Assembly (NCBI RefSeq): GCF_000372725.1
Contig: NW_005201338.1
Span: forward strand, 290,041 to 354,040
From: Emiliania huxleyi CCMP1516
Lineage: Eukaryota
Direction of reading: 5' to 3'
DNA: 64,000 nt
Shown here in pieces: positions 2,461 to 64,000 of the stretch. Position numbers and translations under genes: made by a program. Positions within the stretch are counted from its first letter, which is position 1, and each line of letters starts with the position of its first letter. The notes below the pieces were generated by a model. It did no database searches, was not told where the DNA came from, and saw only the letters and a program-made list of their open reading frames with translations.

Positions 2461-2937
2461 CCTTGCCGAGGCGATGCATGGGCCGGATCACTTTGGACCC
2501 CGACCCCGCCCCCACCCCTCGGGGTGGGGGCACCCGCCCCTGTCGGGCACCGCTTGCGGCGCCTGGCAGGGGCACCCCCTGGGTGGGGGCCGGCGATTCC
2601 CATGCCGGCTCTCCGCCACAACCCCCGCCGGGAGGGAATCCCTGCTCACAGAAAAGGGCTCCGAGCCCTGTCTCGCGCACGCCCCTGGCGGGCGCCGCGG
2701 ACCAGTTCCGCGAGCGCTCGTCAGCGGGTGGTGTGCGGTTTTTGCCGTAGTTCCTCTTCGGTCGCCTAGCCCCGGCGCCGTCTGTCGGACGCCTGCGTGT
2801 CACGAGTGCGTGTCACGAGTCTCTCTCGAGTGCGAGCCGCTCGCGGCTCGTACGCCCGCTTGCGGGTTCGAGTGGCGGGCCATAAAATTCGTGCCGGCGA
2901 CGCGTGCACTCTTTGCTCTTTTGTGTGCGACACCAAG

Positions 2938-3993
2938 ATGGCGTGCCCAGACTGCGGCTCCTCGGACCTTGTCGAGGAGGAAGGGATGGCGATATGTAGC
3001 TCCTGCGGATCGGTGCTCGATGCGAACGCTCTCCTTTATCCACACGAGTTCAACCCAGCGTCCACGAATTATCGACGTCCACAGCAGCTGAGATCTGGCC
3101 CGAACGTGGCGCGGGAAGAAGCACGCAAGGAGCAGCGTGCACAACGGGAGGCAGCGCGCGAGGAGGAGCGCGCCCACAAGGAGGCGGCGCGGAACAAAGC
3201 GCGAGAGGAGGAGCGCGCCCACAAGGAGGCAGCACGGAACAAAGCGCGAGAGGAGGAGCGCGCCCACAAGGAGGCAGCACGGAACAAAGCGCGAGAGGAG
3301 GAGCGCGCCCACAAGGAGGCAGCACGGAACAAAGCGCGAGAGGAGGAACGTGCACAGAAGGAGGCAGCCAAAGCAGAGGAGGTGGCGCAGAAACGCGCCC
3401 GCGAACGCGACGCGGAGCTTGAGGCAGAGGCAGCGCTCGCCGTCAGGTGGAGGGAACTCGCAGCATGGCAGCAGCAGAAGGCGCGGGCGAAGGCCTCGCA
3501 AGCGCCCTCGCAAGCGAGCGTGCAAGCGGCCGCTGCCAGAGCAGCCGAAGCCGCAGCGCAGGAGCGGGAGGCTGCCAAGAGGGCAGCCCGAGAGGAGGCA
3601 GAGTTGTGGCAGTCCCGCCTGAAGGAGCAGCAGCAGGCGCAGCTCAAGGAGGCCGGCCTCCGACAGCAAGCTCTCTTGCGCGAGGCGCGGCTGCGGCAGG
3701 CTGCGCGGCAAGTGGCGACCGGTGCGCCAAGCGCGTATGGCAGCTTTGACGACGCATACAAATCCGTCGACGACCTCTCCACTGACGAGCTCGTGAGACA
3801 TGTGCTCGCGCAGGCGGAGTGCCCGTGGAAGTGCTTGTTTCTTGCCCCGCACGCGCCGCCTGATGAGGTTCGCAAGAGATACAAGCAGCTCGTGTTGCGC
3901 CTTCATCCTGACAAGACGGATCAGGTGCAGGCGGCGCAGGCTTTCGCAGCCGTTGAGTCTGCTTACCAACGGCAACGCATGATTCGGCAATGA
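2938..3993 (+). CDS. TFIIB-type zinc ribbon + charged 15-aa repeats + C-terminal J-domain protein
   Basis: ATG 2938 MACPDCGS...EEGMAICSSCGSVL (CxxC...CxxC); REEERAHKEAARNKA repeats; KRYKQLVLRLHPDK...AFAAVESAY (HPD). Confidence 0.8.
   Translation: MACPDCGSSDLVEEEGMAICSSCGSVLDANALLYPHEFNPASTNYRRPQQLRSGPNVAREEARKEQRAQREAAREEERAHKEAARNKAREEERAHKEAARNKAREEERAHKEAARNKAREEERAHKEAARNKAREEERAQKEAAKAEEVAQKRARERDAELEAEAALAVRWRELAAWQQQKARAKASQAPSQASVQAAAARAAEAAAQEREAAKRAAREEAELWQSRLKEQQQAQLKEAGLRQQALLREARLRQAARQVATGAPSAYGSFDDAYKSVDDLSTDELVRHVLAQAECPWKCLFLAPHAPPDEVRKRYKQLVLRLHPDKTDQVQAAQAFAAVESAYQRQRMIRQ
3155..3370 (+). repeat. 45-bp coding tandem repeat, ~4.5 copies
   Basis: gcgagaggaggagcgcgcccacaaggaggcagcacggaacaaagc repeated in tandem. 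Confidence 0.9.
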
Positions 3994-6779: not shown

Positions 6780-9230
6780 GTTGTGAAAACGAAGCTGTTG
6801 CGAAACCGAAGCCCGGACCTGTAGAGCAGATCCATCAGCTGCGTCGCGTTCTCCACGATGAGCACCTCCGGGTACCGCCCTCGCCACTGCCCCCTCGCAA
6901 CGATCCGCGCGATCTGCTGCACTCTGGCTCGAGCAGTCTCCATCTCCAGCCAGATCGCCTGCCACCGCCAGATATCCGTCTCCCTCTGTCTCACCCGCCA
7001 CTTGCTCGCCGCTGCGCGCCGCACCTCCGCCGCACGGTGGTTAACGAGGTCGGCCTCCGCCTGGGCGCTCAGAGCTTCCGCCCCAGGCTCCTCCATCGGC
7101 CGGGCTGGCGTGTCACCGCTGGTCGCCCCTGCAACCGGCCGCCGGTTCCACATCAGCCAAGGCATCGCCGCGAGTCGGGCGCCCGCACTCGTCTGTGTCT
7201 CCGAGAGGAGCTGCAGCGGAGCCCACTCCCCCCCTCTCACTCGCGCCGCATCAACAAACTCCCGCCAGAAGGCCGGGCCGACCCCATCTGGACGGCCGGC
7301 AAAGACTTGCGCCCTATGGAAGAACATGTGCAGGCCACCCGATATCACCTCGAGCGTTGCGTCCGTCCACCTGCCGTGATCCTCTGCTCGGCCGCGCTGC
7401 TCTGCCTCCGCCCGAGCCCGCCCCAGGATATCGCCGTACGCCCGTCCCAAGCGCACCGCTGTCTCCTCGTCGTCGACGGCCGCCGCCGCCAACTTGATCT
7501 GGAGCCACCCGACCGCCACGAGACGCGGCGACAACAGCAGGAACGGCGAGAACGTCGCGGCCCTCCTCCTCCTGCACCATCCCCTCGGGTTGGAACGCCT
7601 CAGCCAACCGCCGTTCCCATGAGCGCGTCTCCGCGGAGTCTGCCGCCTGCCACAGGAGTGGGCACGTCTTGTCGCCAACCTCGGCGTCGACGGTAGCGCC
7701 GCCGTTAAAGTGGGTCAGGTGCGTCGTTGAAAGGCCGTTCCCGCGTAGTATGCCCGCCACGTCTCCGGCGCCAGGCACGCTGAAGTCGACGACGGTGGAG
7801 TCGGCCGAGATAGTGAGGACGAAGACCGCATCCTCGTTCACGTCAAGTGACACCGCCACGTCTCGCCGGAAGGCGGCGGCAAACGCGTCGCGCGAAGTGG
7901 CGGCGACCGACCTCGTGGGCGAGGCTCAATGTCACGGTCGCCTCGCTCGCCGGCGCCGGGATCTTTGGTGCAGCTTCTCGGTCGCAGGCCCTCTCCAGGT
8001 CGGCCATCAAGGCCCGGATCTGAGCGAAGATGGCCGCGTCGGTCCCGTCCGTGTATGTGCGGATCACAGTAGCCCCGGGACGGGGGCGGGGCGGGCCTCA
8101 CCCGGGACTCACCCCGAGACCCCACCCCGGGACGCGCCGGCTGCGGGTGAGGCCCCACCCCCGGGGCAGTGAGGGGCAGGGGCGGGGCGGAGCTCCTCAG
8201 AGTGAGGCGCCCCGGGTGCCCCCCCACCCCCGCCACCCCGCCCCCCGGGCACCCGACCCGCCCTCAGCTCTCAGCTCCCCACCACGCAAGGTGCAGCGGA
8301 CCGACCTGGTGGGCAAGCGGATGATGAAGACCTTTGGCGGCCATGGCACCTTCGTCGGAGATATCGTCTCTTACGACCCGGAGACGGGATGTTACCAGCA
8401 GGTCACCTATGAGGACGGCGACAAGGAGGGCCTCTCGCGAGCCTCTGTCCAGGCTGGCGTGCGGCGATTCCAGGCCCAGGCAAAGTGATGCGATCCGTCT
8501 CGCCGAGGCGCGCTTTTTTGCGTCCGCCTCGGTAGATGTTAGTAGTTAGAGACTTTGTGCGTTTGGAGCAGTGCGGACTGTCTGTGCAGAGTAGAGTGGG
8601 GTCTCACCCGTTTAGTTGATTTGTAGTATTGTTCTGTGTGAGCGGTGGTGCCGCACAGGCCGCTCTCCCTCGCCTCGGCGGTGTGCGGGTGGTGCCGCGG
8701 CGTGGCGCGGGCCGGGGGCGCGCGGTAGGCGTACGGGGCCGCGTGCGCGTGGCCCGCCCGTGGTGCCCCTGGCTGGGTCGGGCAGCGAGCACCCCCCCGG
8801 GACGGCGCATCGCGAGTGAGGCCCCGGGGTGGGGCAGGTGAGGGAGGGGGCGGGGACGGCCGGGCCCCGGTGAGCCCCGGGTGAGGCCCGACCCCCCCCC
8901 GTCCCGGGGCTACTGTGATAAGCACATGAGGCCGCAGTTCGCCTTCCACAGCCGATGCTCCACTAACGGCTCGAGAATGCCGTCATCTGTCGACGCCAGT
9001 TCCGGTAGGGCCCGTCGCCCCCACTCCAGCAGGTCGGCGATGGCGTCGCACATTAGCAGCCCGAGCGACGGCGCCATCCTCTCCGAGCTCACCGGGTTCG
9101 CGACGACTCCCGCCAACCAGGTCGCGTCCGCAACATTGGACCGGAGAACAAAGGTGAGCGCGAGGAGCTTTGCATCGAGCCGAGGGAGACGCTGTGTAGT
9201 CCTTTCCGTGCTCAACGAGCTGGTCGGTTG
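6780..9230 (-). pseudogene. Possible frameshifted, MITE-interrupted gene of unknown family
   Basis: Successive protein-like minus-strand ORF pieces in different frames (8910-9230, 7843-8067, 7314-7859, 6491-7678). Confidence 0.4.
8065..8917. mobile_element. Non-autonomous TIR element carrying a Tudor-like fragment
   Basis: ~48-bp imperfect TIRs CACAGTAGCCCCGGGACGGGGG.../...GTCCCGGGGCTACTGTG, AT on both flanks; internal DLVGKRMMKTFGGHGTFVGDIVSYD...VTYEDGDKE. Confidence 0.8.
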
Positions 9231-9231
9231 A

Positions 9232-12200
9232 ATGGAAGATCCTGAGCAAACGGAGCGCGTGACGACAGCAGCTATTGACGGCGATGTCGATGCACTGCGC
9301 TCGCTCGCTGAACAGTGCGGCAGCAAGGTGCTGATGGCAGCTTCGGCAGACGGCAGCACACCGGCACACGCCGCCGCTGCAAACGGCCGACTCGACGTGC
9401 TCCGCTTACTTGTTGAGCAGTGCGGCCCAGAGGTGTTGACGGCTGCGGCGGCGGACGGCAGCTCGCCAGCACACGCCGCCGCTGCGAACGGCCACGTCGG
9501 CGTGCTCCGCTTCCTCTGTGAGCAGTGCGGGCCAGAGCTGCTGACGATTGCGATGGCGGACGGTGTGACGCCCGCGTACGCCGCCGCCCTCGGCGGTTAC
9601 GTCGACGCGCTCCGCTTCCTCTCCGAGCAGTGCGGCAGCGAGGTGCTGACGGCCGCGAAAGCGGACGGCGGCATGCCAGCGCACGCCGCCCTTGGTGGCC
9701 ATGTCGACGCGCTCCGCTTCCTCGTTGAGCGGTATGGCAGCGAGTTGCTGACGGCTGCTGTTGCGGGCGGCAGCACGCCAGCTCACGCCGCCGCACTCAA
9801 CGGCCATGTCGACACGCTCCGCTTCCTCGCAGAGCAGTGCGGCAGCGAGGCGCTGAGCGCTGCGGACGTGGCTGGCTGGACCCCAGTGCAGACCGCCGCT
9901 CTCGGTGGCCATATTGAGGCGCTCCGCTATCTCGCCGATCAGTGCGGCCTTGAGCTACTAACGGCTGCGAGACCGAATGGCAGCACGCCAGCTCACACCG
10001 CCGCTTTTGCTGGCCACGCCGACGTGCTCCGCTTTCTCTCCGAGCAGTGCGGCAGTGAGGTGCTGACGGCTGCGAGGGCGGACAATTTGACGCCAGCTCA
10101 CGCCGCCGCTCGCAGAGGCAACACTGACGCGCTCCGCTATCTCTTCGAGCAGTGCGGGCCAGAGGTGCTGACGGCTGCGGATGCGGACAGTGTGACGCCA
10201 GCACACATCGCCGCTCTCGACGGCCATGTCGACACGCTCCGCTATCTCTTCGAGCAGTGCGGCAGCGAGGTACTGACGGCTGCGATCAAGGACGGGCGCA
10301 CGCCAGCTCACTTCGCCGCTGCGAACGGCCACGTCGACGCGCTCCGCTTCGTTGTGGAGGAGTGCGGCAGCGAGGTGCTGACGGCTGCGACGGCGGGTGG
10401 CAACATGCTCGCGAATGCCGCCGCTCTTGCCGGCCATGTCGACGTGCTCCGCTTCCTCTCCGAGCAGTGCGGCCCTGAGGTGCTTGTGGCAGCAAGTGCG
10501 AACGGCTTCAGGCCGGCGCACGACGCTGCGCAGGAGGGCCACGTCGACGCACTTCGCTTTATTGTCGAGCAGTGCGGCAGCGAGGTGCTGACGGTTGCCA
10601 GGGCGAATGGCAGCACACCGGCTCACGCCGCCGCTGCGAACGGCCATGTCGACGCGCTCCGCTATCTCGCCGAGCAATGCGGGCCAGAGCTGCTGACGGC
10701 TGCGAGGGCGGACAGTGCGACGCCAGCACACATCGCCGCTCTCGACGGCCATGTCGACGTGCTCCGCTTCCTCTCCGAGCAGTGCGGCAGCGAGGTACTG
10801 ACGGCTGCGATCAAGGACGGGCGCACGCCAGCACACTCCGCCGCTGCGAACGGCCACGTTGACGTGCTCCGCTTCCTTGTGGAGGAGTGCGGCAGCGAGG
10901 TGCTGACGGCTGCTGATGAGGGCGGTTGGACGCCCGCATACGCCGCCGCTCTCGAGGGCCATGTCGACACGCTCCGTTTCGTTGTGGAGCAGTGCGGCAG
11001 CGAGGTACTGACGGCTGCTGATGAGGACGGTTGGATGCCCGCGTACGCCGCCGCTCTCGGCGGCCATGTCGACACGCTCCGTTTCGTTGTGGAGCAGTGC
11101 GGCAGCGAGGTGCTGACGGCTGCGATCAAGGACGGGCTCACGCCAGCTCACTTCGCCGCTGCGAACGGCCACGTTGACGCGCTCCGCTTCGTTGTGGAGG
11201 AGTGCGGCAGCGAGGTGCTGACGGCTGCGACGGCGGGTGGCAACATGCTCGCGAATGCCGCCGCTCTTGCCGGCCATGTCGACGTGCTCCGCTTCCTCTC
11301 CGAGCAGTGCGGCCCTGAGGTGCTTGCGGCAGCAAGTGCGAACGGCTTCAGGCCGGCGCACGACGCTGCGCAGGAGGGCCACGTCGACGCACTTCGCTTT
11401 ATTGTCGAGCAGTGCGGCAGCGAGGTGCTGACGGTTGCCAGGGCGAATGGCAGCACACCGGCTCACGCCGCCGCTGCGAACGGCCATGTCGACGCGCTCC
11501 GCTATCTCGCCGAGCAATGCGGGCCAGAGCTGCTGATGGCTGCTGATGAGGACGGTTGGACGCCCGCATACGCCGCCGCTCTCGGCGGCCATGTCGACAC
11601 GCTCCGCTATCTCTTCGAGCAGTGCGGCGGAGAGGTGCTGACGGCTGCGATCAAGGACGGGCGCACGCCAGCACACTCCGCCGCTGCGAACGGCCACGTT
11701 GACGCGCTCCGCTTCCTTGTGGAGGAGTGCGGCAGCGAGGTGCTGACGGCTGCTGATGAGGACGGTTGGACGCCCGCATACGCCGCCGCTCGCAGAGGCC
11801 ATGTCGACACGCTCCGCTATCTCTTCGAGCAGTGCGGCAGCGAGGTGCTGACGGCTGCTGATGAGGACGGTTGGACGCCCGCATACGCCGCCGCTCGCAG
11901 AGGCCATGTCGACACGCTCCGCTATCTCTTCGAGCAGTGCGGCGGAGAGGTGCTGACGGCTGCGATCAAGGACGGGCGCACGCCAGTACACTCCGCCGCT
12001 GCGAACGGCCACGTTGACGCGCTCCGCTTCCTTGTGGAGGAGTGCGGCAGCGAGGTGCTGACGGCTGCTGATGAGGACGGTTGGACGCCCGCATACGCCG
12101 CCGCTGTCAATGGCCAGGTCGACGTGCTCCGCCTTCTCGCCGAGCAGTGCGGCAGCGAGGCGCTGACGGCTGCGAATGCGAACGGCTACACGCCAGCGCA

Positions 12201-15200
12201 CAGGGCCGCTGCGCATGGCCATGTCGACGTGCTTCGCTTCCTCGCCGAGCAGTGCGGCAGCGAGGTGCTGACGGCTGCGATCAAGGATGGCGACACGCCA
12301 GCGCACGCCGCCGCTGACAGTGGCCATGTCGACGTACTCCGCTTCCTCTCCGAGCAGTGCGGCAGCGAGGTGCTGACAGCTACGAACGCGGGTGGCTGGA
12401 CCCCGGTGCACAGAGCTGCTCTCGGTGGCCACGTCGACGCTCTCCGCTATCTCGCCGAGCAATGCGGGCCAGAGCTGCTGACGGCATCGGACGGCAGTAG
12501 TCCAGCGCGCATCGCCGCAGTAAGGGGCAAGGTTGACGCACTCCGCTTCATCGTCGACCTGTCAGCCCAGTCGATTCCTACCGTTCTTCTCGACGCGCTC
12601 AAGAGGAACTCTGAGCACGCTCCGCTCGCCCTCGCCTGGCAGTCCCTGCTCAGCAGCCAGAAGCCCTCATTCTTCTCCTCCCGACCCGACCCTGCAAAGA
12701 TCGAGGCTGCCCTCGCCGCCGCACGGGATGCAGGCGTTGCATCCAGCGAGCTTGACCGTGCAGCAGCTTTGCTACGTGACACAAAGCTGTTGCGCGCGCT
12801 CAACGGCCGCCCTGCCCCCAAGCTGCTGCTATCGACCATCGCGAGCAATGGCCCTGGCGCGAACAAGGCGGTTGTGACGCTGAGTGGCCTACTCGACCCG
12901 CAGAACATGCTGCTCAGTTGGGCGGCGCTAACGGCAGTCGCTGAGAGCCCTGATTTGCCATCTGACGTTCTCACGCCGCTTCTCTCGTGCTTGACGCGCG
13001 CCCGCGCTTACTGGTCGCCCGATGGATGGTCTGAGGACGCAATTGAGTGGGTTACGGCCGCTCTCGCGGCACTCGAAGCCAGCTTCCTCGTTCGCAGCGG
13101 CCCGTTTGAGAACTACCCGGACCTCATCCACGCCCGTCTCATCGGTCTGATGCAAACGACGACGCCCGAGCATCTGCGAGTTCGTGCCGCCTTCGTGCTG
13201 AGCCACGCATACACGCGAGGCTACCCCGCCGATGCGGCCAGCTTCGACGCCTCCGATGCTGCTGGTCTTCTCGCTCGCTCGGTGCGGATCAGTGCCGCTT
13301 GCTCGCCGCCCGCGGTGCTCGCGTCGGCCGCCGGCTTTGCACTGGTCGCCGCAGCCACGGCGGGCTTTGCTGCCGCGCAGCGTGCGCTGGCCAGCCTCGC
13401 TAGCGACAGCACGCTTGGCATTCTGCTTGGCGCGACGATCAGCGTGCCTGCCAACTGCGCCGTCCTGTGGGCGTCGCTCGACCCTGTGCAGCGGTGCATC
13501 GACTTTTACCCGCGCGCGATTGCGCAGCAGCTCGAGGCGGCGCTCGGCAGCGGCAAGGACCGCTGCATGCTCGGCGCCGACTTTTTCAACGCGACCGTCC
13601 ACCTCCCGCCGGACGGCGGCTTTTACCAGACCACGCTCGGGCAGCACATGGGCCGCTCGGGCTATAAGGCGCCGGGCTTCCGCTCGGCGTGCCGCATCGT
13701 GCACCCGCGCAGCGCGCGCACGGTGACGCTGCACGGGCGTCGCGTCCAGGGAGAGTGGCGCCTCGCAGAGAGCGGCGACGACGCCGAGTACAGCTTTGTC
13801 GAGGTCGCGCCGGCGCACTGCATGCTGTGCCGTGAGGCGGCGGAGGAGCTTACGTCCTTGCGTTGGCCAGCCGCTTTGGTTGCAATCGTACATGCCATCC
13901 TCAACGGCACCCAAGGCGGACTCTCCGCAGAGGTTGTGGGTGCCCTGCTATCATGCGCCGGACCAGCGGAGCTGCCTGAGCCTATACATTCCGGCGACTG
14001 GCTCTGCGATGCTGCAGCGCTCCTGTTTGCTGGCCTAAGTGAGCTCGAACACACTAAGGAGACTGCGGAGCTCGTCAAGGCGGCGCGCTGGGTCTGGGAG
14101 CACGCGGCCCAAAGCCGGCTGCTTCGCGACGGACACCCATGGCAGCCACTACTTTTGCAGAGCATGCAGCGCGCCGCCGACCGCATTGAGGAGCTTGAGG
14201 CTCGTGCGGCTAGGCATGACCAAGAGGATCTGCTGCAAATCGTGAGCGGCGCTGTGGCGGTGGCAGAGGTGGCGACAAAGCATTGCGCAGTCGGCGTCGT
14301 CGACTCGGCTCCCGCCCGCATCCTGAGTGAGCTTCGCAGCCTCGAGCGTACTTTGCAGAACGAAAAGTTCGAGCTGATGGTCTACGGCGTGTACAGCGTT
14401 GGCAAGAGCAGGCTGCTGCAGACAGGCTACCCGGGTCTGAAGAATATGCTGCCTGTCTCCTCTAAGGAGTGCACCGCGCACCTGATCAAAATTGACGTCG
14501 GCAGTGATGGCCAGCGCGGCGAAAGCGATGCCGAGCTACATTTCGACTGGCAGTCCGTTGTTAAAATGGACTCGACGCTGCGCGATTTGCTTCCAGACAA
14601 GGTTCGCCGCTTTCTTGAGGAGCCGCACGTCCGAGAGTTCATCGATGGCTTTCTGATGGAAGACGAGCAGCAATCGCCCCCAACGTTACCGCTTTCAGAG
14701 GAGGAGGTCAGCGCGTGGGCTCGCGTCGATGGCGGCAGCGATAGTACGAGCATCAAGGCCCTTGCTAGCGTGGTTGATCACATCGCGGTCAGCGTCACGG
14801 TAGACGCCGACTGCCCGCGGTACAACATCATCGACGCCCCTGGGCTTGGGGCCGACAAGAGCCGACGCGACATCGCAGAGCGCCACCTGCGCAAGTGTGA
14901 CGTGCCCATCGTCATCGCCTCCTTCATCGACCTCAGCCTCGAGCCGCTTCAAGAGGCGCTGCGGCAAATCAAGGCCAGCGGCCATCAGCCAATTATCGTC
15001 ATCACGAAGCTCGACGAGCAGTACACGCGGCTCGGTGAAGACCATCCCAGCCAAGACCTGTCCGCCCTTATGGAGGCAAGTATGGCGGACGCACGGCGGA
15101 TCTTCGTTCAGGCCGGTTTCCGAGAGTCAGATGTCCACTTCGTTTCCGCGTACTGGTTCGAGTTCTCGAAGGATCGGCAACGTGCTGCGCGAGTGCGCGC

Positions 15201-18117
15201 CGCGCTTGAGACTGCGGGTCTGCCGTCCGACGAGGACGAGTCGACTGCTCGCGAAACCCTGCGCCGCCTATCCGGGATCGACGCCTTTTGGGATGCCGTC
15301 GACGAGCTAGTCATGCGCGATGCGGCCAGACGACGTGCTGGGAGGGTTTGCGAAGAGCTGGCGCAGCACCTCTCCCAGCTGCTTGGCATGCTCCTCGACC
15401 AGGACGGCTTGCTGAGCGGAGTCAGGCCAAACGCGGATGATCCAGAGTGGCGTGCCGACGTGCAACGCACTTCCGTGGCAGCTAAGGGGACTCTCGATGC
15501 AGCGCTAGACGCGATGCAGTCCGAGTGCTCCGACGCAATCGCAGAGACTGCCACGCGGATGCGGAAGGGGCTGACGGAGCTGGTCCTCGAGCTTCAGAAG
15601 ATGTGTGCCGGGGGATCCACCATCGACCAGCTCTCAGCTCGCCTGCAGCAGCGCTTTGCCGAGCTGCAGCAGACGCTTGCCCCTTACCAAGGGTGGGAGA
15701 TGGCGGGAAATAAGATGCGAGACCATCTCGAGCGTGCAGGTGAGCAGCTGGCCGAGCTGCTTCGAAAGCACTTTCCCGGCTCCGTCCACTCGCTGCTGCT
15801 TTCGTCGTCGCAGCTGCAAACGCCTGCAATCACCGATGCGCCCTCGAGTATCACGACGCCCAACGTCACGCGGAATGTGGCGGGTGCAGTTGCAGGGGCT
15901 GTGCTCGAGATCGTCGCCCTCTGCGCGCTCCCAGTCATTGCAACAGCGATTACCGGCGGCGCCGTTGCGCCGCTCCTAGCCCCGGTGGTAAGGAGTGCAT
16001 TACCGAGTGCAGTGGCTGCTGGCATTCAAGTCTACCAGGCCGAGGCCGGACGCGACCTGCCTGCGGAGTGGGTGCGCGAGTGCGAGGAGGCAAAGAGCGG
16101 GTGGATCCGAGACTTTGAGCGCGGTCTTCGTCGCCAGCTGGAGGTCTGGAGGCGGCAGGTGAGCGCAGCTGTTGTCAGTCAACTCGATAGCTGGATCGAT
16201 GGCATTCAGGCAGCAGCCAGCCTGCCCCCTGATCAGCTCCAGCCTTCCCAGGCTGACATCCGTGCCGCCGGCGAGCAAGGACAGGTACTGCTGTCGGATG
16301 CTGTCGCGTTGCTGGATCGCCTCAGCGGTAATGTTGTCTCGGATGGTGCAGAGATCAACATTGTGCGCCTCGGTGCTCGCGTGCGACGGCTGAAAGCGAG
16401 TGCCAAACGATGGCTCGACATCGATCTGCAGCTTGCCGATCCCTCAGAGGAAGCGGCGCGTGAGCGACGGGAGGATACCCAAAGGCAAACCACAGACAGC
16501 TACGCCTTTCTTGCATCGGTCCTGACGACTGAGCTCCGGCGCCATGGCTCGGAGCTCGAGGCGACTCAGACGCTACGAGCGCCATCAAGCCGCCCGCAGC
16601 CCCCGCAGCCCCCGCAGCCCCCGCGTGGCGCTCCTCGTCCCACGGCTGCAGCGCAGGAGATCGCGCGGCACGCGCTCCTGGCTCGGCTGAGCGATGAGGT
16701 ATACTCTCGACACGACGCGGGTGAGGTGCTCTTCTTGAAGAGCGCCGATGACCCGAGTGTCGACGAGCAGGTGGAGGTGCTGCACTTCAGCTCTGCTGGC
16801 GGCGGCACCTGGAAGGTGCCGCAGTGGGCAGTCTTCCGTACCGCAGGCCGCGCTGACGGCGACTTTGTGGCTCTCGTCTTCAAAGGCACGGAGGCCCCGA
16901 CCGAATGGGTGGTGGACTTTGCGTGTGTGTCTCGCGAGGCCGGCGGCGGGCTGAAGCTCCACGCCGGCATCTCTGGCAACTTGCGATCGCACATCGCGGC
17001 TGTGGAGTCCGCGATCGCCCGCTCGACGACAGACGCCGGCGCTCTGCCGCTCTACTTCTCCGGCCACTCGCTCGGAGGCGCGTACGCCATGTGCGCCTTC
17101 TACATGGTTGCGCCGACTCTCTCGCAGCGGGTCGCCGGCGTTGTCGGATTTGGTGCCCCGCTCGTGACCGTCGCCGGAGGCCCGCCCGAGATCGTGCTGA
17201 CGGCTAAGCTGCGGTTCTTGACCTACGTGTCGGGCAACGACATCGTGCCACGCTCCCTGTTCAAGCCGAATGCTGAGAAGTTGCTCGCCTTTGCTCGCCG
17301 TTTGGGCAAGAGCCAGGCATTGTCTACCGTCTCCAACGCCATGCCGACATTTGACATGATTGGCCAGTTCCGCGCGCTGCCGGGAGCGGTCGAGCGACCC
17401 CCTTCCGAGCTGCTGCGGATTCGGCCAGATGCGCCGCTGACGTCGCACATCGACGACCACGCGTGCCGCGGCTATGCACGACTGCTTGATGAGTGCGCAC
17501 TCGAGCTGCTGCCGAGTGCTACGTCCACACCGATGGCACCGGCACCGTCACCGACGGAGGCGGCGGTGGTGGTGATGTCGGCGGCGGCAGCGGCGGCAGC
17601 GGCGGCAGCGGCAACAGCAGCGTTGGCGGAGACAGAGGCGCGGACGGCGGGGACGGCGACGGCGTCTACGTCTATCGAGGCTCCTTTCCCGACGGCGCAG
17701 CAGGAGCTGGCGCAGGCGCTCGAGGCGTCGGAAGGACGGTCGCAGGTGGCTGAAGATCGTGACCTGGCGCACGGCATCGAAGAGTCGCTTCGAACCGACG
17801 GCCCGTCCCCCTTCGCTTCGGCCGCCGCCGCCGTACAAGGCGAGGCGGGCTCAATGGGCTCCTCCATGTCAGTTTCAGCGGCCGAGTCAGCGTCGACGGT
17901 GCAAGCATCCCCGATGAACTCTCCTCGAGGGCGGGCAATGGTGGCGCTTCTCGAGGACGCTAAGCTCACCGCTTATGCGAGTGTGCTGCACGATGCCGGA
18001 TATTATGAGCTGACTGATCTCAGAGAGGCCGACGACGCAGACCTCGGCGAGCTCGGAGTGGGACTCAAGAAACCCGAGATCAAAAGATTGCGACGCTATC
18101 TCGAGAAACAAGTCTGA
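9232..18117 (+). CDS. Giant multidomain protein: ankyrin array - WWE-like - dynamin-like GTPase - hydrophobic hairpin - class-3 lipase - SAM
   Basis: Uninterrupted 2961-aa ORF; TPAH.AA..GH repeats; G1 GVYSVGKS (14386), G3 DAPG (14833), G4 TKLD (15004), FVSA; lipase FKGT, GHSLGG (17062), FGAP, NDIVP; C-terminal SAM-like YASVLHDAGYYELTDL...LGELGVGLKKPEIKRL. Confidence 0.9.
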   Translation: MEDPEQTERVTTAAIDGDVDALRSLAEQCGSKVLMAASADGSTPAHAAAANGRLDVLRLLVEQCGPEVLTAAAADGSSPAHAAAANGHVGVLRFLCEQCGPELLTIAMADGVTPAYAAALGGYVDALRFLSEQCGSEVLTAAKADGGMPAHAALGGHVDALRFLVERYGSELLTAAVAGGSTPAHAAALNGHVDTLRFLAEQCGSEALSAADVAGWTPVQTAALGGHIEALRYLADQCGLELLTAARPNGSTPAHTAAFAGHADVLRFLSEQCGSEVLTAARADNLTPAHAAARRGNTDALRYLFEQCGPEVLTAADADSVTPAHIAALDGHVDTLRYLFEQCGSEVLTAAIKDGRTPAHFAAANGHVDALRFVVEECGSEVLTAATAGGNMLANAAALAGHVDVLRFLSEQCGPEVLVAASANGFRPAHDAAQEGHVDALRFIVEQCGSEVLTVARANGSTPAHAAAANGHVDALRYLAEQCGPELLTAARADSATPAHIAALDGHVDVLRFLSEQCGSEVLTAAIKDGRTPAHSAAANGHVDVLRFLVEECGSEVLTAADEGGWTPAYAAALEGHVDTLRFVVEQCGSEVLTAADEDGWMPAYAAALGGHVDTLRFVVEQCGSEVLTAAIKDGLTPAHFAAANGHVDALRFVVEECGSEVLTAATAGGNMLANAAALAGHVDVLRFLSEQCGPEVLAAASANGFRPAHDAAQEGHVDALRFIVEQCGSEVLTVARANGSTPAHAAAANGHVDALRYLAEQCGPELLMAADEDGWTPAYAAALGGHVDTLRYLFEQCGGEVLTAAIKDGRTPAHSAAANGHVDALRFLVEECGSEVLTAADEDGWTPAYAAARRGHVDTLRYLFEQCGSEVLTAADEDGWTPAYAAARRGHVDTLRYLFEQCGGEVLTAAIKDGRTPVHSAAANGHVDALRFLVEECGSEVLTAADEDGWTPAYAAAVNGQVDVLRLLAEQCGSEALTAANANGYTPAHRAAAHGHVDVLRFLAEQCGSEVLTAAIKDGDTPAHAAADSGHVDVLRFLSEQCGSEVLTATNAGGWTPVHRAALGGHVDALRYLAEQCGPELLTASDGSSPARIAAVRGKVDALRFIVDLSAQSIPTVLLDALKRNSEHAPLALAWQSLLSSQKPSFFSSRPDPAKIEAALAAARDAGVASSELDRAAALLRDTKLLRALNGRPAPKLLLSTIASNGPGANKAVVTLSGLLDPQNMLLSWAALTAVAESPDLPSDVLTPLLSCLTRARAYWSPDGWSEDAIEWVTAALAALEASFLVRSGPFENYPDLIHARLIGLMQTTTPEHLRVRAAFVLSHAYTRGYPADAASFDASDAAGLLARSVRISAACSPPAVLASAAGFALVAAATAGFAAAQRALASLASDSTLGILLGATISVPANCAVLWASLDPVQRCIDFYPRAIAQQLEAALGSGKDRCMLGADFFNATVHLPPDGGFYQTTLGQHMGRSGYKAPGFRSACRIVHPRSARTVTLHGRRVQGEWRLAESGDDAEYSFVEVAPAHCMLCREAAEELTSLRWPAALVAIVHAILNGTQGGLSAEVVGALLSCAGPAELPEPIHSGDWLCDAAALLFAGLSELEHTKETAELVKAARWVWEHAAQSRLLRDGHPWQPLLLQSMQRAADRIEELEARAARHDQEDLLQIVSGAVAVAEVATKHCAVGVVDSAPARILSELRSLERTLQNEKFELMVYGVYSVGKSRLLQTGYPGLKNMLPVSSKECTAHLIKIDVGSDGQRGESDAELHFDWQSVVKMDSTLRDLLPDKVRRFLEEPHVREFIDGFLMEDEQQSPPTLPLSEEEVSAWARVDGGSDSTSIKALASVVDHIAVSVTVDADCPRYNIIDAPGLGADKSRRDIAERHLRKCDVPIVIASFIDLSLEPLQEALRQIKASGHQPIIVITKLDEQYTRLGEDHPSQDLSALMEASMADARRIFVQAGFRESDVHFVSAYWFEFSKDRQRAARVRAALETAGLPSDEDESTARETLRRLSGIDAFWDAVDELVMRDAARRRAGRVCEELAQHLSQLLGMLLDQDGLLSGVRPNADDPEWRADVQRTSVAAKGTLDAALDAMQSECSDAIAETATRMRKGLTELVLELQKMCAGGSTIDQLSARLQQRFAELQQTLAPYQGWEMAGNKMRDHLERAGEQLAELLRKHFPGSVHSLLLSSSQLQTPAITDAPSSITTPNVTRNVAGAVAGAVLEIVALCALPVIATAITGGAVAPLLAPVVRSALPSAVAAGIQVYQAEAGRDLPAEWVRECEEAKSGWIRDFERGLRRQLEVWRRQVSAAVVSQLDSWIDGIQAAASLPPDQLQPSQADIRAAGEQGQVLLSDAVALLDRLSGNVVSDGAEINIVRLGARVRRLKASAKRWLDIDLQLADPSEEAARERREDTQRQTTDSYAFLASVLTTELRRHGSELEATQTLRAPSSRPQPPQPPQPPRGAPRPTAAAQEIARHALLARLSDEVYSRHDAGEVLFLKSADDPSVDEQVEVLHFSSAGGGTWKVPQWAVFRTAGRADGDFVALVFKGTEAPTEWVVDFACVSREAGGGLKLHAGISGNLRSHIAAVESAIARSTTDAGALPLYFSGHSLGGAYAMCAFYMVAPTLSQRVAGVVGFGAPLVTVAGGPPEIVLTAKLRFLTYVSGNDIVPRSLFKPNAEKLLAFARRLGKSQALSTVSNAMPTFDMIGQFRALPGAVERPPSELLRIRPDAPLTSHIDDHACRGYARLLDECALELLPSATSTPMAPAPSPTEAAVVVMSAAAAAAAAAAATAALAETEARTAGTATASTSIEAPFPTAQQELAQALEASEGRSQVAEDRDLAHGIEESLRTDGPSPFASAAAAVQGEAGSMGSSMSVSAAESASTVQASPMNSPRGRAMVALLEDAKLTAYASVLHDAGYYELTDLREADDADLGELGVGLKKPEIKRLRRYLEKQV
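9256..12560 (+). repeat. 105-bp (35-aa) ankyrin tandem array, ~32 units including caps
   Basis: Units counted in the translation; units 11-14 recur as 19-22 at an 840-bp offset. Confidence 0.95.
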
Positions 18118-18884
18118 AATTGTGGTGGTCCGAGCACCTCTCCTGCGACCTGGGCCGTAGCCCGTTCCCGACTGTACCGTATATTTACCGTGTAAATGCA
18201 TGAGCATGTGTGTACTGTACGGCTCTACGTGTGTAGGCTGCAAGCAGTTACGAGTAGATTTTTTTACTGATTACGCATCATCCCCCCCCACCCCGCCCTC
18301 GACTCAAGGGGCTGCCTTCCACCGTCGCTGCTCAGGCCGGGGGAGGGGGGGAGACCTCCTGTTCCTCGCGGAACGGGAGTAGGCCCCTCCTTGCCCGGTC
18401 TGCGATGCAGGGCGGTGGCCGTGCCATCTTCGCTTCACAAAGACCACGCCGCAATCGTCGCCGGCGCGCGACGCGTTCCCGTAGGCCGGACTGTCCTGGT
18501 CGAGAGTGTGTGCCGCCAAGGCGGGGCTACTCGGGGACAGTGCCGACGGGACGCGGCTCGAGAGACGACTCCCGCGAAAGCACGGCTGGCATCCGTGGCG
18601 TGGGGCTCGCCTTCGAAAAGTCGGGCATGGCTCTCCCCGCAACTCTATCGCTAACACGCGCGCACCACCGAGACTGTGGTGGGCGCGCTGCGGTCGCACG
18701 TCTACCTCCGTCATAGTGCCACGACGTGCGGCCTAGAATTAGCACACGCGCCTCTGCTTGCATACACTCATACATTGGATTGTCATCGCCTGTGAGTGCG
18801 AGATAGGGCTAGCAGTAGGCAGCTAGCCTCTGAGGAGGGCGTCCATAGACACCTCACTAGACCCCACACACGGTCTCGCCCGTG

Positions 18885-19215
18885 CCTCGCCGGCCGGAGA
18901 GATTGCTGGAGGTAGAGCAAGGTAGCCTGCTCTAGCCTCGCATGTCACTTCCTGTTGTCTGTTGTTTGTTGTGCCCTTGTTTGTTCTCTTGGCACCTTGG
19001 AGTGCTGGGGGGGGCGACAGGGAGGATATGGCCTTGAGTTATGTGTACGCCTACTCAGGGTGTGTGGCAGCCCGCTGGCTGTGTGTCTTGTGAGCCTGTT
19101 TGTGTCTGTGTGTCGCTCGTGCGTGTCGTCATCATCTGTCCAGCGTCCACGCATACCGCGTTGGTGTCCAGTCCGAGCCTGGCTGTTCTTCACCTTTCTA
19201 CCTACCTACCTACCT
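18885..19215 (+). mobile_element. Repeat family C: retroelement-like 3' end with (CTAC)n tail
   Basis: Inverted near-identical copy at 63046-63366; related ends at 19468-19640(-) with (ATCT)n and at 36808-36905. Confidence 0.75.
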
Positions 19216-37666: not shown

Positions 37667-38170
37667 CTGAGGGAGGGTGTAGAGGATGTAGAGTGTAGAG
37701 CGCTGTAGAGCTGTAGAGATGTAGAGCGCTCTGGAGCGCTGTAGAGCTGTAGATCTCTACATCCGGCGCGGGACGGACTGCCTGCGTTGTTGAGCGCATG
37801 TAGAGCGCATGTAGAGCGCGATTTACTTAGTGATTTCACTGTCAGAGGCTTTGCGTCACAAGAGTGCACACGAACTTGTCGANNNNNNNNNNNNNNNNNN
37901 NNNNNNNNNNNNNNNNNNNNNNNNNNNNNNNNNNNNNNNNNNNNNNNNNNNNNNNNNNNNNNNNNNNNNNNNNNNNNNNNNNGCATGTAGAGCGCATGTA
38001 GAGCGCGATTTAGTTAGTGATTTCACTGTGAATTCGCGGTCTACATCGCTCTACAACGCAGGCAGTCCGTCCCGCGCCGGACGTAGAGCTCTACAGCTCT
38101 ACAGCGCTCTACAGCTCTACAGCTCTACAGCGCTCTACATTCTACATCCTCTGCACCCTCCCTCAGTCAG
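37667..38170. mobile_element. Foldback MITE with 8-bp flanking direct repeat (hAT-like), spanning an N gap
   Basis: Long imperfect TIRs ctgagggagggtgtagaggatgtagag.../...ctacatcctctgcaccctccctcag; GCCCCCAC at 37659-37666 and 38171-38178. Confidence 0.75.
37883..37982. other. Assembly gap (100 N)
   Basis: N run; other gaps at 48825-48924 and 61970-62075. Confidence 1.
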
Positions 38171-55990: not shown

Positions 55991-58900
55991 TCCCTCTCCC
56001 TCACACCCTCACCCTCACCCTCGCCCTCGCCCCAGCCTTCAACCCTCCCCCTCCCCTCGTGTCCAGCGCACCGAACTGCTCCTGGAGGCGTGAGCAGACG
56101 CTCCTCACACCTCGTCAGGTCCAGCTCTCGCTCGACTGCCGCCGCGTCGCCCTCCGCGCCCTCCGCTCCTTCCGGCCAAGCCTCCTCCACGTCTCTGCCC
56201 TGTGAATAGTATAGCTGTGAACAGTACAGCTGTGAATAGGCCAAGCCTCCTCCACGTCTCTGCCTGTGAATAGTATAGCTGTGAACAGTACAGCTGTGAA
56301 TAGGCCAAGCCTCCTCCACGTCTCTGCCCCCGGCGTCCTCGCCCTGCCCGCCATCTTGTGCGCGCGCCTCCCGTCGCGCGCCTCTCTCTGTGTGAACGGC
56401 GACTCTTCACACACGCACCCGCACCCGCGAGTGCAGGTACTCTCGCCTCCTCTCCGTCCCTCTCGTCGTCTCGTACCACACACACCTCTCCGTCTACGCC
56501 GCGCGCTACGTCACCACCCCCGGCGCCGCCTCGCCTCGCCTCTGCTCTGCTCTGCTCTCCTCTCCTCTCCCCTGCTCTCCTCTGCTCTCCTCTGCTCTCC
56601 TCTCCTCTCCTCTCCTCTCCTCGCCTCTCCTCGCCTCGCCTCGCCTCTCCTCTCCTCTCCTCGCCTCGCCTCGCCTCGCCTCGCCTCGCCTCGCCTCGCC
56701 TCGCCTGTGTATGTTACCAAGGCCCGGACCCACAGGCTTGCGCTGGCTCGCGGTGAAGCTGGCAGACGCGCTGCTGCCCCGGCTGCTCAACTGCGCCGAC
56801 CTCACGCTCGCCACGAGCCCGCAGCTGCAGCAGCAGCTGCGCGCGCTCGGCTGCAGGCGCGTCGAGGGTGGGTTCGGGTACCGTGGGGTAGGGGAGGGTG
56901 GGTTCGGGTACCTTGGGGGGTAGGGGAGGCGCTCGGCTGCAGGCGCGTCGAGGTGTGGCGCAAGGGCGTCGACACGCTCACTTTCTCGCCCGCCTTCAAC
57001 GTCTCCAACGCCCACGCCCGGCACGCGCTGACGGGCGGGCAGCCGCACCGGCCGCCGCTGCTGTCGCTGGACTCGTGCCGCGTCTCCCGCCGCCGCCCTC
57101 CGAGAAATGGCCGAGATCGCGTAGGCCGCTGCTGCTGTACGTCGGGCGGCTCGTAAAAAAGAAATCCCGCACCTGGGCGATTTCTTTTTTAGGCCGCTGC
57201 TGCTGTACGTCGGGCGGCTCGGCGCGGAGAAGCGCGTCGAGCTGCTGCGGCCAGGCTGTCTCGGCTCTTTGGCCAGCGAAGGTGGTGACTCGGTCACAGG
57301 CGCGTCGAGCTGCTGCGGGCGGTGCTGGACGCGAGGCCGGACGCGACTTTGGCGATAGCAGAACTGTGAATAGTGCAGCTGTGAAGAGTGCAGCTGTGAA
57401 TAGGCCGGACGCGACTTTGGCGATCGTTGGCGGGGGGCCAGCGGAGGCGAGTTCACACCGTCCTATTCACAGCTGCACTCTTCACCGCTGTACTGTTCAC
57501 AGCTCTGCTCTCACACCGTCCTATTCACAGCTGCACTCTTCACAGCTGTACTGTTCACAGCTCTGCTCTCACACCGTCCTATTCACAGCTGCACTCTTCA
57601 CCGCTGTACTGTTCACAGCTCTGCTCTCACACCGTCCTATTCACAGCTGCACTCTTCACCGCTGTACTGTTCACAGCTCTGCTCTCACACCGTCCCTCAC
57701 CAACGGTCAACACCTCCCTCTGACTGGTCTGCCCGGAGGCGAGTTTGCGCCGCGAGTTTGCCGGTGCGGCGGCGGTGTTTGCCGGCGTTCTGCGGGGGCG
57801 AGGACCTCTCGTAAAAAAGAAATCCCCGCGCATCGGCGATTTCACTTTTACTAGGCGTTCTGCAGGGCGAGGACCTCTCGCGCGCGTACGCGGCGGCGGA
57901 CGTCTTTGTGAGTGCCCGCCGAGTCGCCGGGCGACAGCCGCGTGACACGATTGCGGTGAGGCGTCCTGGTGGTTGGGCGCAGGTGATGCCCTCCGACTCG
58001 GAGACGCTGGGTTTCGTCGTGCTCGAGGCGATGGCTTCGGGCGTGCCCGCCGTCGCCGCCGACGCGGGCGGGCTGAGATTAGCCGAGATTGAGCCGAGAT
58101 TAGCCGAGATTAGCCGAGGTGCGCCGAGATGCGCCGAGATTAGCCGCCGACGCATGGCGGGCTGTCTGTTCTGGTGGCGGCCGTGACAAAAAAGGAGACG
58201 CGGGCCGCGCACACACGCAAGCTGTGGGCAGGCGGGCTGTCGAGCCTGGTGGCGGACGGCGAGACGGGGCTGCTGTTCACGCTCAGCTGTGAAGAGTACA
58301 GCTGTGAACAGTACAGCTGTGAATAGGCGAGACGGGGCTGCTCTTCACGCCGAACTGTGAAGAGTACAGCTGTGAACAGTACAGCGGTGAATAGGCGAGA
58401 CGGGGCTGCTTTTCACGCCGAGCTGTGAAGAGTACAGCTGTGAACAGTACAGCTGTGAATAGGCGAGACGGGTCTGCTCTTCACGCCGGGCGACGGGGCC
58501 GACCTGGCGGCGAAGGTTGGGCGGCTGGCCGGGGAGCCTAGAAGCTGAACCCCGTCTTCCCTGTACTCCCACCAGCGCTCGAGAGGAGCACGTCTTCCGC
58601 CGCATTCGGCCGCATTCGGCTGTGTGTGAGAGGCCTCTGATCGGCTACTACGATCTCGACTTCACAAGTCCACTTCACAAATCTGCCCCCGTGTCCCGCA
58701 GATCGACGATCCGCGGCTGCGGTGGGAGATGGGCCGAGCGGCGTGCGCCGAGGCGCGGCAGCGCGGCGTGAGACCCTCCGTCGCGAGGAGACGGGCTCCG
58801 CGTGGCTTGACCGCCACCCGGCACTTGCCACCAGGCGAGGCGGTGGAGCTGGGAGGCGGCCACGTCGGTGCTGCGCAACGAGCAGTACGCGCTGGCGGAG

Positions 58901-62657: not shown

Positions 62658-63366
62658 TGGAGCACTTGGAGCGTGTGCAGTGTTATATAGCAGCCGCACA
62701 TCCACACACCTTCATCCAGGGCCGGGGAGCTAAGACTTAGGCTAAGAAGCGCACCAGCGGGCCAGATGATTGGGATCGGGTTACGGGCTAGATAGCCCTA
62801 GCCTTGGAGCAGCAATCAGCGCCTTTTTTCTTTCCAGTACGCGCCAGTCCCGTGCCCAGTCGTGCGAGGGAGTTTTCTTGTAAACTCCTGTGTTAGTGCC
62901 AGTGCGCGCCAGTCCCGTGCCCAGTCGTGCGAGGGAGCTTTCTTGTAAACTTCTTTTTAGGATGTGCCGGCGCGGTGTGTGTGCCAGTCCGCGCCGGCAG
63001 TCCGCGCCCTTGTGTCGTGCCACAGCGTGCTGTGTGAGAGGTTTGAGGTAGGTAGGTAGAAAGGTGAAGAACAGTCAGGCTCGGACTGGGCACCAACGCG
63101 GTATGCGTGGACGCTGGACAGATGATGACGACACGCACGAGCGACACACAGACACAAACAGGCTCACAAGACACACAGCCAGCTGGCTGCCACACACCCT
63201 GAGTTGGCGTACACATAACTCAAGGCCACATCCTCCCTGTCGCCCCCCCCAGCACTCCAAGGTGCCAAAGGACACAAACAAGGGCACAACAACACAACAG
63301 ACGACAGGAAGTAACATGCGAGGCTAGAGCAGGCTTGCTCCACCTCTAGCAATCTCGCCGGCCGGC
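62658..63366 (-). mobile_element. Cluster of repeat families B, A and C, all reverse
   Basis: Matches to 19218-19412, 23727-23795 and 18885-19215. Confidence 0.8.
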
Positions 63367-64000
63367 GAACTGGTTGGGTAGTAGTCTAAGTTCTGAGCCT
63401 CGACGCCTAGCGGGTCTAAGTGTGCCTAGGCACGCTGGGGTGCTTGCGCGGTCTAAGGTCAGCGGGAGCCTCTTACATCGGCTAAGTCGGCCGTGGCACG
63501 GCCTGGGGCCAAGAGGCTCCCACCGTTATCGATACGGCGCTCCGCCCAAATTTTCTTCGCCTGCGGCGGGCGCCTACTAAAATCCGGATCGATCCTCCTC
63601 ATGCCTCAGCAATCGCCGCCTCAGCATCCATATCCATGCCAAGCACCGCCACGATCTTGAAGCAGAACACATCGCAACCGCATCGTCCGCACTGCCATCG
63701 GCATGCCGCGCCCGCCGCTTCGCCGCAGCCGCCTTAAGGCACGCATAGCGGCAGCACATGGTGGGGGGGGTACTTGAGCAGGCGTTGCGCGCCGCAAGTA
63801 GCGCACTGGCCCTGGGAGAAGGCGATATGGCGTCGTGCGCGGGCGGCATACGTTGGTCGGACGCGTCCAGGTATATTTCGGGTAAACCTGTTGACGTATC
63901 GGCGGCTAAGGCCGAGGCACGCCACTCATCGCCCCAGCGGTCCTGTATATCGCTGGACGGATGCGGAGTAAGCTCTCGAGGGCGCGAAGGGGGGGAAAGG

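Follow-up and report, generated by a model that had tools for sequence, protein, structure and literature searches.

An intact ankyrin-dynamin-lipase gene with a virus-shared inserted domain, a candidate defence receptor of Emiliania huxleyi

The receptor logic proposed for the gene analyzed here is closest to that of ROCO receptors and of NLRs with integrated domains. Passages of PMC3341825 describe the LRR-ROCO proteins of Ectocarpus as having N-terminal variable repeats, a central GTPase, and appended modules in an algal host, together with high birth and death and variation at the repeats' concave face. Plant NLR-IDs (RRS1-WRKY, RGA5/Pik-1-HMA) possess, in some family members only, an additional domain copied from another gene of the host (PMC12787737, in part). 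Fungal NLRs with a sesB-like lipase or patatin combine conserved ankyrin repeats that have a variable face with a P-loop NTPase and a lipase in one chain (PMC4986451, in part). [quoted passage not shown]

Judged from its domains, the protein encoded at 9232..18117 of the window (the whole 64,000-nucleotide stretch of DNA that was analyzed) is no member of the NLR, ROCO, Mx/GBP, or Eleos families. Neither NACHT nor NB-ARC reached E ≤ 1 in Pfam scans of the complete protein and of its segments, no Roc or COR match was found in the protein, and the P-loop carries the GTPase motifs DxPG and TKxD. The preliminary description had proposed an NLR-analogous layout, of which the repeats, NTPase, and effector and the variability of the repeats stand, but there is no STAND domain and the order is reversed, as in ROCO: repeats, GTPase, and lipase from the N-terminus instead of effector, NTPase, and repeats. 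In contrast to ROCO receptors, the core is a BDLP-type dynamin with stalk and membrane tip rather than Roc-COR, the lipase is C-terminal, an insert is shared with viruses, and the repeats lie in one exon (the comparison of exons draws on part of PMC3341825). In contrast to fungal lipase-NLRs, NACHT/NB-ARC is absent, the repeats come first and the effector last, the lipase is of class 3, and the stalk is predicted to bind membranes. Unlike the plant NLR-IDs, this protein is not an NLR, and its extra domain recurs in a viral protein and is not one known as an effector target; any decoy role would be hypothetical. Unlike the bacterial DLPs, the GTPase is fused to repeats, a lipase, and SAM in a eukaryote, and a scan of 55 other ORFs of the window found no second Dynamin_N for a partner DLP, as in the two-gene Eleos. 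The claim that no such architecture has been described agrees with the open full-text literature as searched by titles and abstract starts (subscription papers and supplements being outside this scope); the available parts of a eukaryotic dynamin survey that excludes mitofusin-type proteins do not contain the word "ankyrin" (PMC11789081). The features are as follows, with identities given to the metagenomic relative L003.

9232..18117, + strand: whole gene, 2,961 aa; 32 ankyrin units, helical region, inserted domain, BDLP-type GTPase/stalk, lipase, linker, SAM
9244..12594, + strand: ankyrin array, 32 units of 105 bp (motif scan, TRF, Pfam)
12619..13437, + strand: Ala/Leu-rich region, likely helical, family unassigned (39% identity at residues 1297-1390)
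13438..13852, + strand: inserted 137-codon domain, residues 1403-1540 (in-frame joint, GC3, viral homology)
13853..14367, + strand: conserved pre-GTPase region (51% identity over 1582-1722; the BDLP alignment starts here)
14368..15291, + strand: dynamin-like GTPase domain (G1 14386-14409, G3 14833, G4 15004, G5 15142)
15292..16551, + strand: helical stalk (neck/trunk) with hydrophobic tip at 15874-16032 (hydropathy, LeoA model, Atlas, contig joints)
16669..17496, + strand: class-3 lipase domain, Ser2613-Asp2670-His2743 (61% identity)
17704..17787, + strand: two short UIM-like motifs, a lead only (pattern fitted after seeing the sequence)
17944..18108, + strand: SAM domain (SAM_TNK, residues 2905-2959, E 5e-7 on the segment)

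The frame opens with ATG and runs through 2,961 codons with zero internal stops and no N letters, the N runs of the window lying solely at 37883, 48825, and 61970. Pfam and motif scans recovered the domains and motifs of the preliminary description in this single ORF and at their positions, but that description had overlooked the insert. Its term "intronless" fits only in so far as the frame is open throughout, with no spliced form among the contig joints listed. The surrounding window is a GC-rich eukaryotic region with genes for a KIF9-like kinesin, Vps26, PP4R3, AIM24, an LCAT-type enzyme, and a TFIIB-zinc/DnaJ protein, and the upstream neighbor is a broken frame carrying an inserted element.

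The ankyrin array spans residues 5 to 1121 in 32 units of 35 aa, two of them of 33-34 (TRF, 30.6 copies of 105 bp; Pfam Ank_2, E 6e-169). Recent internal duplications relate units 11-14 to 19-22, unit 16 to 24 and 27, and unit 23 to 26; units 11-14 and 19-22 differ by 2, 1, 0, and 6 nt, with the repeat number taken as assembled. The duplicated blocks are 99% identical over 105 aa at a 280-aa offset and thus pass the internal-conservation mark of 85% over 100 aa, above which, according to the accessible part of PMC4986451, repeats are enriched in fungal NLRs and otherwise rare (0.4-1.2% of repeats elsewhere). Across the 29 regular units, 9 of the 35 positions are invariant. The most variable are positions 34, 35, 1, and 3, which we take to lie in the hairpin, positions 8, 11, and 12, presumably in the inner helix, and position 22. 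Fungal NLR ankyrins vary in the same regions, hairpin and inner helix (PMC4986451, in part).

Polymorphism among units was compared after near-identical ones had been collapsed, which kept 23 of the 29. At five positions picked beforehand by the DARPin scheme, which we assume to mark the binding face, pN is 0.51 against 0.16 elsewhere (84 of 100,000 random sets reach 0.51; p 0.0008, permutation). High internal conservation with a variable binding face is NLR-like, and the ankyrin sensor proposed earlier is supported on this point. Codon models gave an omega of 1.30 for the five sites against 0.39 for the remainder, and of 1.68 for seven sites, two of them picked after seeing the data, against 0.30. 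The scaffold omega differs strongly from 1 and the surface omega is not significantly above 1 (2 delta lnL 0.6 and 3.0), in tree-based tests that exchange between repeats weakens on ankyrin units. The array is a conserved scaffold with a free or diversifying surface, positive selection not being proven.

The GTPase domain matches Dynamin_N at residues 1716-1927 (E 3.7e-7; 30.8 bits on the segment, and 26.9 bits on the whole protein, just below the cut-off of 27). We take GVYSVGKS at 1719 as G1, Thr 1748 as G2, DAPG at 1868 as G3, TKLD at 1925 as G4, and VSA at 1971 as G5, the labels G1-G3 having been checked against alignments with Cj-DLP1 and BDLP; the set of G1, G3, and G4 noted earlier is thereby completed with G2 and G5. 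The last ~60 residues of the pre-GTPase region likely form the neck helix of the dynamin-like fold. Residues 2215-2255 of the stalk form a hydrophobic stretch (hydropathy up to 2.37), and the tip at 15874-16032 is predicted to be a membrane paddle, comparable to the lipid paddle at the trunk tip of BDLP (PMC6104087, in part). The Dynamin_N G domain with G1-G4 and the helical neck/trunk with hydrophobic tip are the marks of the BDLP/mitofusin type, and the protein has both, the second as judged by sequence. A single-sequence structure model, used for the question of the stalk, was too poor for use (pLDDT 41).

A profile of this GTPase and eight relatives matched Cj-DLP1 (5owv, E 2.7e-6) and Nostoc BDLP (2j68, 1.4e-4) in the PDB, followed by mitofusins (0.05-0.9); Mx, classical dynamin, and GBP were not among the 14 PDB hits at E ≤ 10, and Pfam found no Dynamin_M, GED, or GBP domains in the protein. 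The Atlas neighbors of one relative (P0002) are clusters of bacterial DLPs, mitofusins, and LeoA (0.90-0.94), and the two full-length hits of a deep search are bacterial-type DLPs with a Dynamin-like_hel_bact domain. From G3 to the end of the stalk, the protein matches the LeoA model of PADLOC (residues 1862-2325, E 1e-14), but this match is a mark of the clade rather than of defence, because two ordinary bacterial DLPs score higher on it (E 1e-25 and 1e-30). By these comparisons, GTPase, stalk, and tip are of the bacterial dynamin-like (BDLP/LeoA)/mitofusin type. Membership in the dynamin superfamily, as first proposed, is thus retained, but the affinity to Mx and GBP is replaced by one to BDLP, LeoA, and mitofusins (PDB profile, Atlas, LeoA model).

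The Ala/Leu-rich region behind the ankyrins has no significant Pfam match and is skipped in some copies, as seen in contig joints. The domain that follows is an insertion: it is absent from L003 and from other copies in which a joint 13437>13853 (net -411 nt, in frame; the shorter side just 36 nt) occurs in two of four sequencing runs, and its GC3 is 0.91 against 0.67-0.72 in both flanks. A second version (~19 differences in 372 nt, ~95% identical) has a different 5' flank and occurs, with a higher summed depth, in three of the four runs. Six small predicted proteins that cluster together (P0026) track the window up to residue 1539 and then depart. The 5' flank of the second copy and the departure of P0026 agree with the in-frame joint on the ends of the insert. 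An integrated domain is defined as an extra one that only part of a family carries and that has a homologue standing alone in the host, and the insert fits this definition. Many copies do without the insert.

The insert has no Pfam or PDB match, its family profile likewise has no match in the PDB, and none of 33 candidates from prokaryote genomes was confirmed; phage records yielded neither the insert nor the GTPase-lipase part. A divergent WWE domain is a lead only, suggested by the place of its viral relatives before a WWE, by a W...Y...IE...Q...R pattern, and by the top three Atlas clusters, all WWE (0.81-0.83). None of eight insert-family members matched PF02825/WWE in Pfam, a comparison of the insert profile with the adjacent true WWE gave a probability of 0.3% (E 0.18), and a single-sequence structure model (pLDDT 36) was too poor for a fold search.

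Between the insert and the N-terminal domain of a gene of 340-370 aa on viral contigs, identity is 39-48% (seven sequences), and 14 viral loci out of 74 candidates carry a relative of the insert. Five of these contigs are named GVMAG and are AT-rich and gene-dense; the giant-virus major capsid family is present in four of six testable records, the two without it being 13% and 32% complete. The viral gene has the layout domain-WWE-U-box (WWE, E 4e-7; U-box, E 6e-17; Pfam, one member), with WWE motif patterns in 13 and U-box patterns in 12 of the 14 loci; among the misses, one locus has WWE and U-box by eye and one frame stops early. This layout recalls the tandem WWE and RING of the Deltex/RNF146 E3 ligases, but the viral gene has a U-box rather than RING-DTC and its first domain is WWE-like as a lead only. 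In Deltex, the tandem WWE domains bind chains of ADP-ribose (both points from part of PMC11345397), and one may guess by analogy that the insert does so too. No description of a viral WWE-U-box ligase was found in the open full-text literature by titles and abstract starts (subscription papers and supplements lie outside this scope), and "WWE" is absent from the available portion of a survey of giant-virus ubiquitin genes (PMC11915834). A PARP gene lay beside the viral ligase in none of five records, in a search without a positive-control match, and none of 38 viral-contig candidates aligned with the GTPase.

Recent acquisition of the viral ligase genes from hosts, with GC above their flanks, was considered and rejected, given a GC3 of 0.10-0.29. 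Because of this composition, the ligase gene is judged to be long resident in viruses and the insert to derive from a gene of the host rather than directly from a virus. The insert (GC3 0.91) is a host copy rather than a copy of the viral gene, and the viral link is therefore indirect. A host donor copy that continues like the viral ligase was also considered and rejected: P0026 aligns over 15 columns more than the window does, and this tail by itself lacks significance (its score is reached by 70 of 500 shuffles).

A defence or conflict role in some form is quite probable. Our preferred reading, for which we regard the balance as even, is a self-contained defence receptor-effector that would couple ligand recognition to membrane assembly and lipid hydrolysis. 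By analogy with NLR and ROCO receptors, the ankyrin array would keep the GTPase off until a foreign or infection-made ligand binds to the ankyrin face or to the insert and releases the G domain. GTP binding would then lead to G-domain dimers and drive the hydrophobic tip into a bilayer, as BDLP biology suggests, and the lipase, placed behind the returning helices of the stalk, would be set against that membrane and hydrolyze its lipids. The attacked membrane may be the cell's own, with death of the infected cell, or that of the invader. SAM would add cooperativity but is dispensable in the relative. The insert would act as an integrated sensor next to the ankyrins, copied from a host gene that has its giant-virus counterpart in a ubiquitin ligase. 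The fullest form of this reading is a tentative one that we hold to be rather unlikely as a whole: a new receptor class in which a bacterial-type dynamin switch delivers a lipase, and the insert is an integrated giant-virus sensor that copies the reader domain of a host ligase and detects the ligand (possibly ADP-ribose chains) or the partner of the viral ligase.

The family of this gene is a mosaic one. Copies that lack the entire middle (joint from the ankyrins to 14193) occur in three of four runs, the membrane tip is replaced in two of four (joint 15867>16032) and also differs in P0009, part of the G domain is replaced in two runs, and the lipase loop in three; contig joints do not distinguish paralogues from alleles among these copies. 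The preliminary description had suggested looking for paralogues with swapped effectors; what varies between copies is the middle, the tip, and the SAM tail, and no swap of the effector was seen. Among 18 hits in public assemblies, 16 eukaryote-type fragments (31-90% identity) are, by their similarity, further family members. Three of 78 candidates (L001-L003) are metagenome contigs of a single locus, 99.9% alike and of 57% GC, so that a single pseudogene locus is the sole relative that was read from end to end. In L003, ankyrin units separated by intron-like DNA are followed by the helical region (39%), the pre-GTPase region (51%), and GTPase-stalk-lipase (47% over 1,028 aa), and the frame, which has no SAM, ends after the lipase; the G1 region is deleted, and there are frame shifts and two in-frame stops.

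GBP and IRG GTPases coat foreign membranes and work with separate effectors. The protein might likewise be a constitutive weapon, for which ankyrins and insert serve only as the address to a foreign membrane (virus factory, phagosome, or endobiont); it would coat this membrane by means of the dynamin and break it with the lipase, with neither autoinhibition nor cell death. The mosaic copies, the decayed relative, and the variation of the repeats fit this equally, the exchange of the tip between copies would be expected if target membranes differ, and phage defence by DynA requires membrane binding (PMC12998192, in part). An always-active lipase on a membrane remodeler would, however, be risky without a switch. 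The present data do not separate such a weapon from a switch-type receptor; we consider it unlikely.

Distinctly unlikely is a housekeeping enzyme, a membrane-remodeling lipase on an ankyrin scaffold that serves organelle, lipid-droplet, or autophagic turnover, with the variation being neutral turnover of repeats. The membranes that BDLP/mitofusin-type proteins remodel are mostly those of the cell itself (PMC6104087, in part), the surface omega is compatible with 1, and the lipase is conserved across species. However, a housekeeping gene accords poorly with several mosaic copies, with a relative that has lost G1 and gained in-frame stops, and with variation confined to the binding face of a scaffold whose omega is 0.3-0.4. 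Moreover, no full-length relative was found in 5.8 billion clusters by word-index searches, which are limited by length and words and are no proof of absence. A conserved single-copy gene with invariant repeats, one of the outcomes that the preliminary description had set against itself, is likewise not what we found, as the gene is not single-copy and its repeats vary.

The lipase matches Lipase_3 at residues 2548-2676 (E 5e-12) and has the mark of class 3, a GxSxG nucleophile followed by Asp and His. The order GHSLGG...NDIVP...DDH given in the preliminary description was confirmed; Ser2613, Asp2670, and His2743 follow one another in that order and are all retained in the divergent L003, as are the GHSLGG, FKGT, DIVP, and DDH stretches, the assignment of Asp and His being based on motif and conservation rather than structure. 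The motifs in the linker that resemble ubiquitin-interacting motifs (UIM) have no Pfam support.

Lipase folds may also serve as non-catalytic signaling platforms, as in EDS1/PAD4. A platform of this kind, or a maker of a lipid messenger, would signal rather than destroy membranes, and we hold this to be improbable. The SAM tail and UIM-like motifs do suggest partners, and the nearest solved relatives are weakly similar fungal lipases (E 0.005-0.02), but the triad and its flanking stretches are kept at 61% identity, Pfam finds no EDS1-type EP domain, and SAM is missing from L003.

Eight sequencing runs with one organism label contain 0.70-0.91 of the sampled words of 12600-18114; the best of them may be the assembly's own source. 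Contigs of four runs were aligned to 12080-18700, and 32 of 748 pieces are listed. Zero-difference contigs bridge the ankyrin/helical junction in two runs (X1, 12456-13388; X2, 12452-12738) and the insert/neck junction in four of four (13782-14092 or longer), and one identical X1 contig of 2,645 nt bridges GTPase, stalk, and lipase (14884-17528; one run). Among the pieces listed, no identical contig bridges the helical/insert, neck/G1, or lipase/SAM junctions. With three domain junctions bridged by independent contigs, the assembly does not appear chimeric, as the preliminary description had allowed it might be. Because the ~47%-identical L003 has the same domain order, the core fusion is judged to be old and no artefact.

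Contigs of runs X1 and X6 start ~70 nt ahead of the ATG, at 9159 and 9161, and the preceding 2.3 kb is thinly covered; that these runs are RNA is a guess, and the 5' contig starts were not counted as evidence of transcription. Run X15, from the same study as X1, has contigs on neighboring genes and none on 9208-10230, with 0.00 of the words of 12600-18114, a hole that is no proof of absence or of silence. Six metatranscriptome rows with shares of 0.06-0.17 were left out of account, also as regards habitat.

Very improbable is a chain without function as a whole, whether it arose as a by-product when domains were shuffled in a genome rich in repeats or is a mosaic of paralogues made by the assembly: near-identical paralogous pieces, a broken upstream frame with an inserted element, and three unbridged junctions among the 32 of 748 pieces listed would suit it, but 8.9 kb without a stop, the zero-difference bridges, and the shared order in the relative argue against it.

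How single-celled eukaryotes recognize giant viruses is largely open, and the gene offers a concrete, testable candidate. Its chain joins a binding array that varies, a putative nucleotide switch, a predicted membrane-cutting enzyme, and a virus-shared domain whose only longer-known relatives found here sit in giant-virus genomes. If the receptor-effector reading is true, STAND and Roc would be joined by a third NTPase core on which the repeat-NTPase-effector design arose, and the integrated-domain strategy would exist outside plants. The widespread, undescribed viral WWE-U-box ligase would then likely be a factor of counter-defence or host control.

Giant viruses carry a conserved gene family whose product, 340-370 aa long, has the architecture unknown domain-WWE-U-box, the first domain being 44-91% identical between members. 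Its occurrences in the contig records are:

L004:2998-4110, gene of the unknown domain-WWE-U-box family
L005-L013 and L017-L029, further genes of this family

The product is likely an E3 ligase that reads ADP-ribose or protein. No description of the family was found in the titles and abstract openings returned by full-text literature searches.

In L003, a decayed metagenomic relative of the window gene, the ankyrin units (L003:2150-3200) are distributed at about one per exon-like piece, whereas all 32 units of the window gene lie in one frame; either the array was exchanged or the window gene went through an RNA intermediate. In L003, the end of G1, the first GTPase motif, and the following ~45 codons have given way to a short self-complementary stretch that resembles telomere sequence (L003:4561-4580), and comparable telomere-like repeats occur upstream within its intron-like DNA.

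Just upstream of the window gene, an ~860-bp element with inverted terminal repeats (8063-8919), containing a Tudor-like fragment (Pfam E 1e-11), is inserted in a broken minus-strand frame that extends directly to the start of the window gene. Another frame (2797-3993) combines a TFIIB-type zinc ribbon, a 45-bp charged repeat, and a DnaJ domain. The window also contains repeats:

18290-18700, high-copy dispersed repeats, starting ~170 nt 3' of the stop codon of the window gene
18887-19211 and 63046-63368, a 325-bp element and its inverted copy (94% identity)

The second copy of the 325-bp element lies close to the end of the window. Tandem repeats of 58-68 bp, based on a common 15-bp unit, are clustered in both orientations at 56174-58488.

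The protein fragments P0014 and P0024 represent a more distant family member (31%) with the same GTPase type. Their N-terminal region ahead of the GTPase differs and is of no known kind, hinting that the family includes additional architectures.
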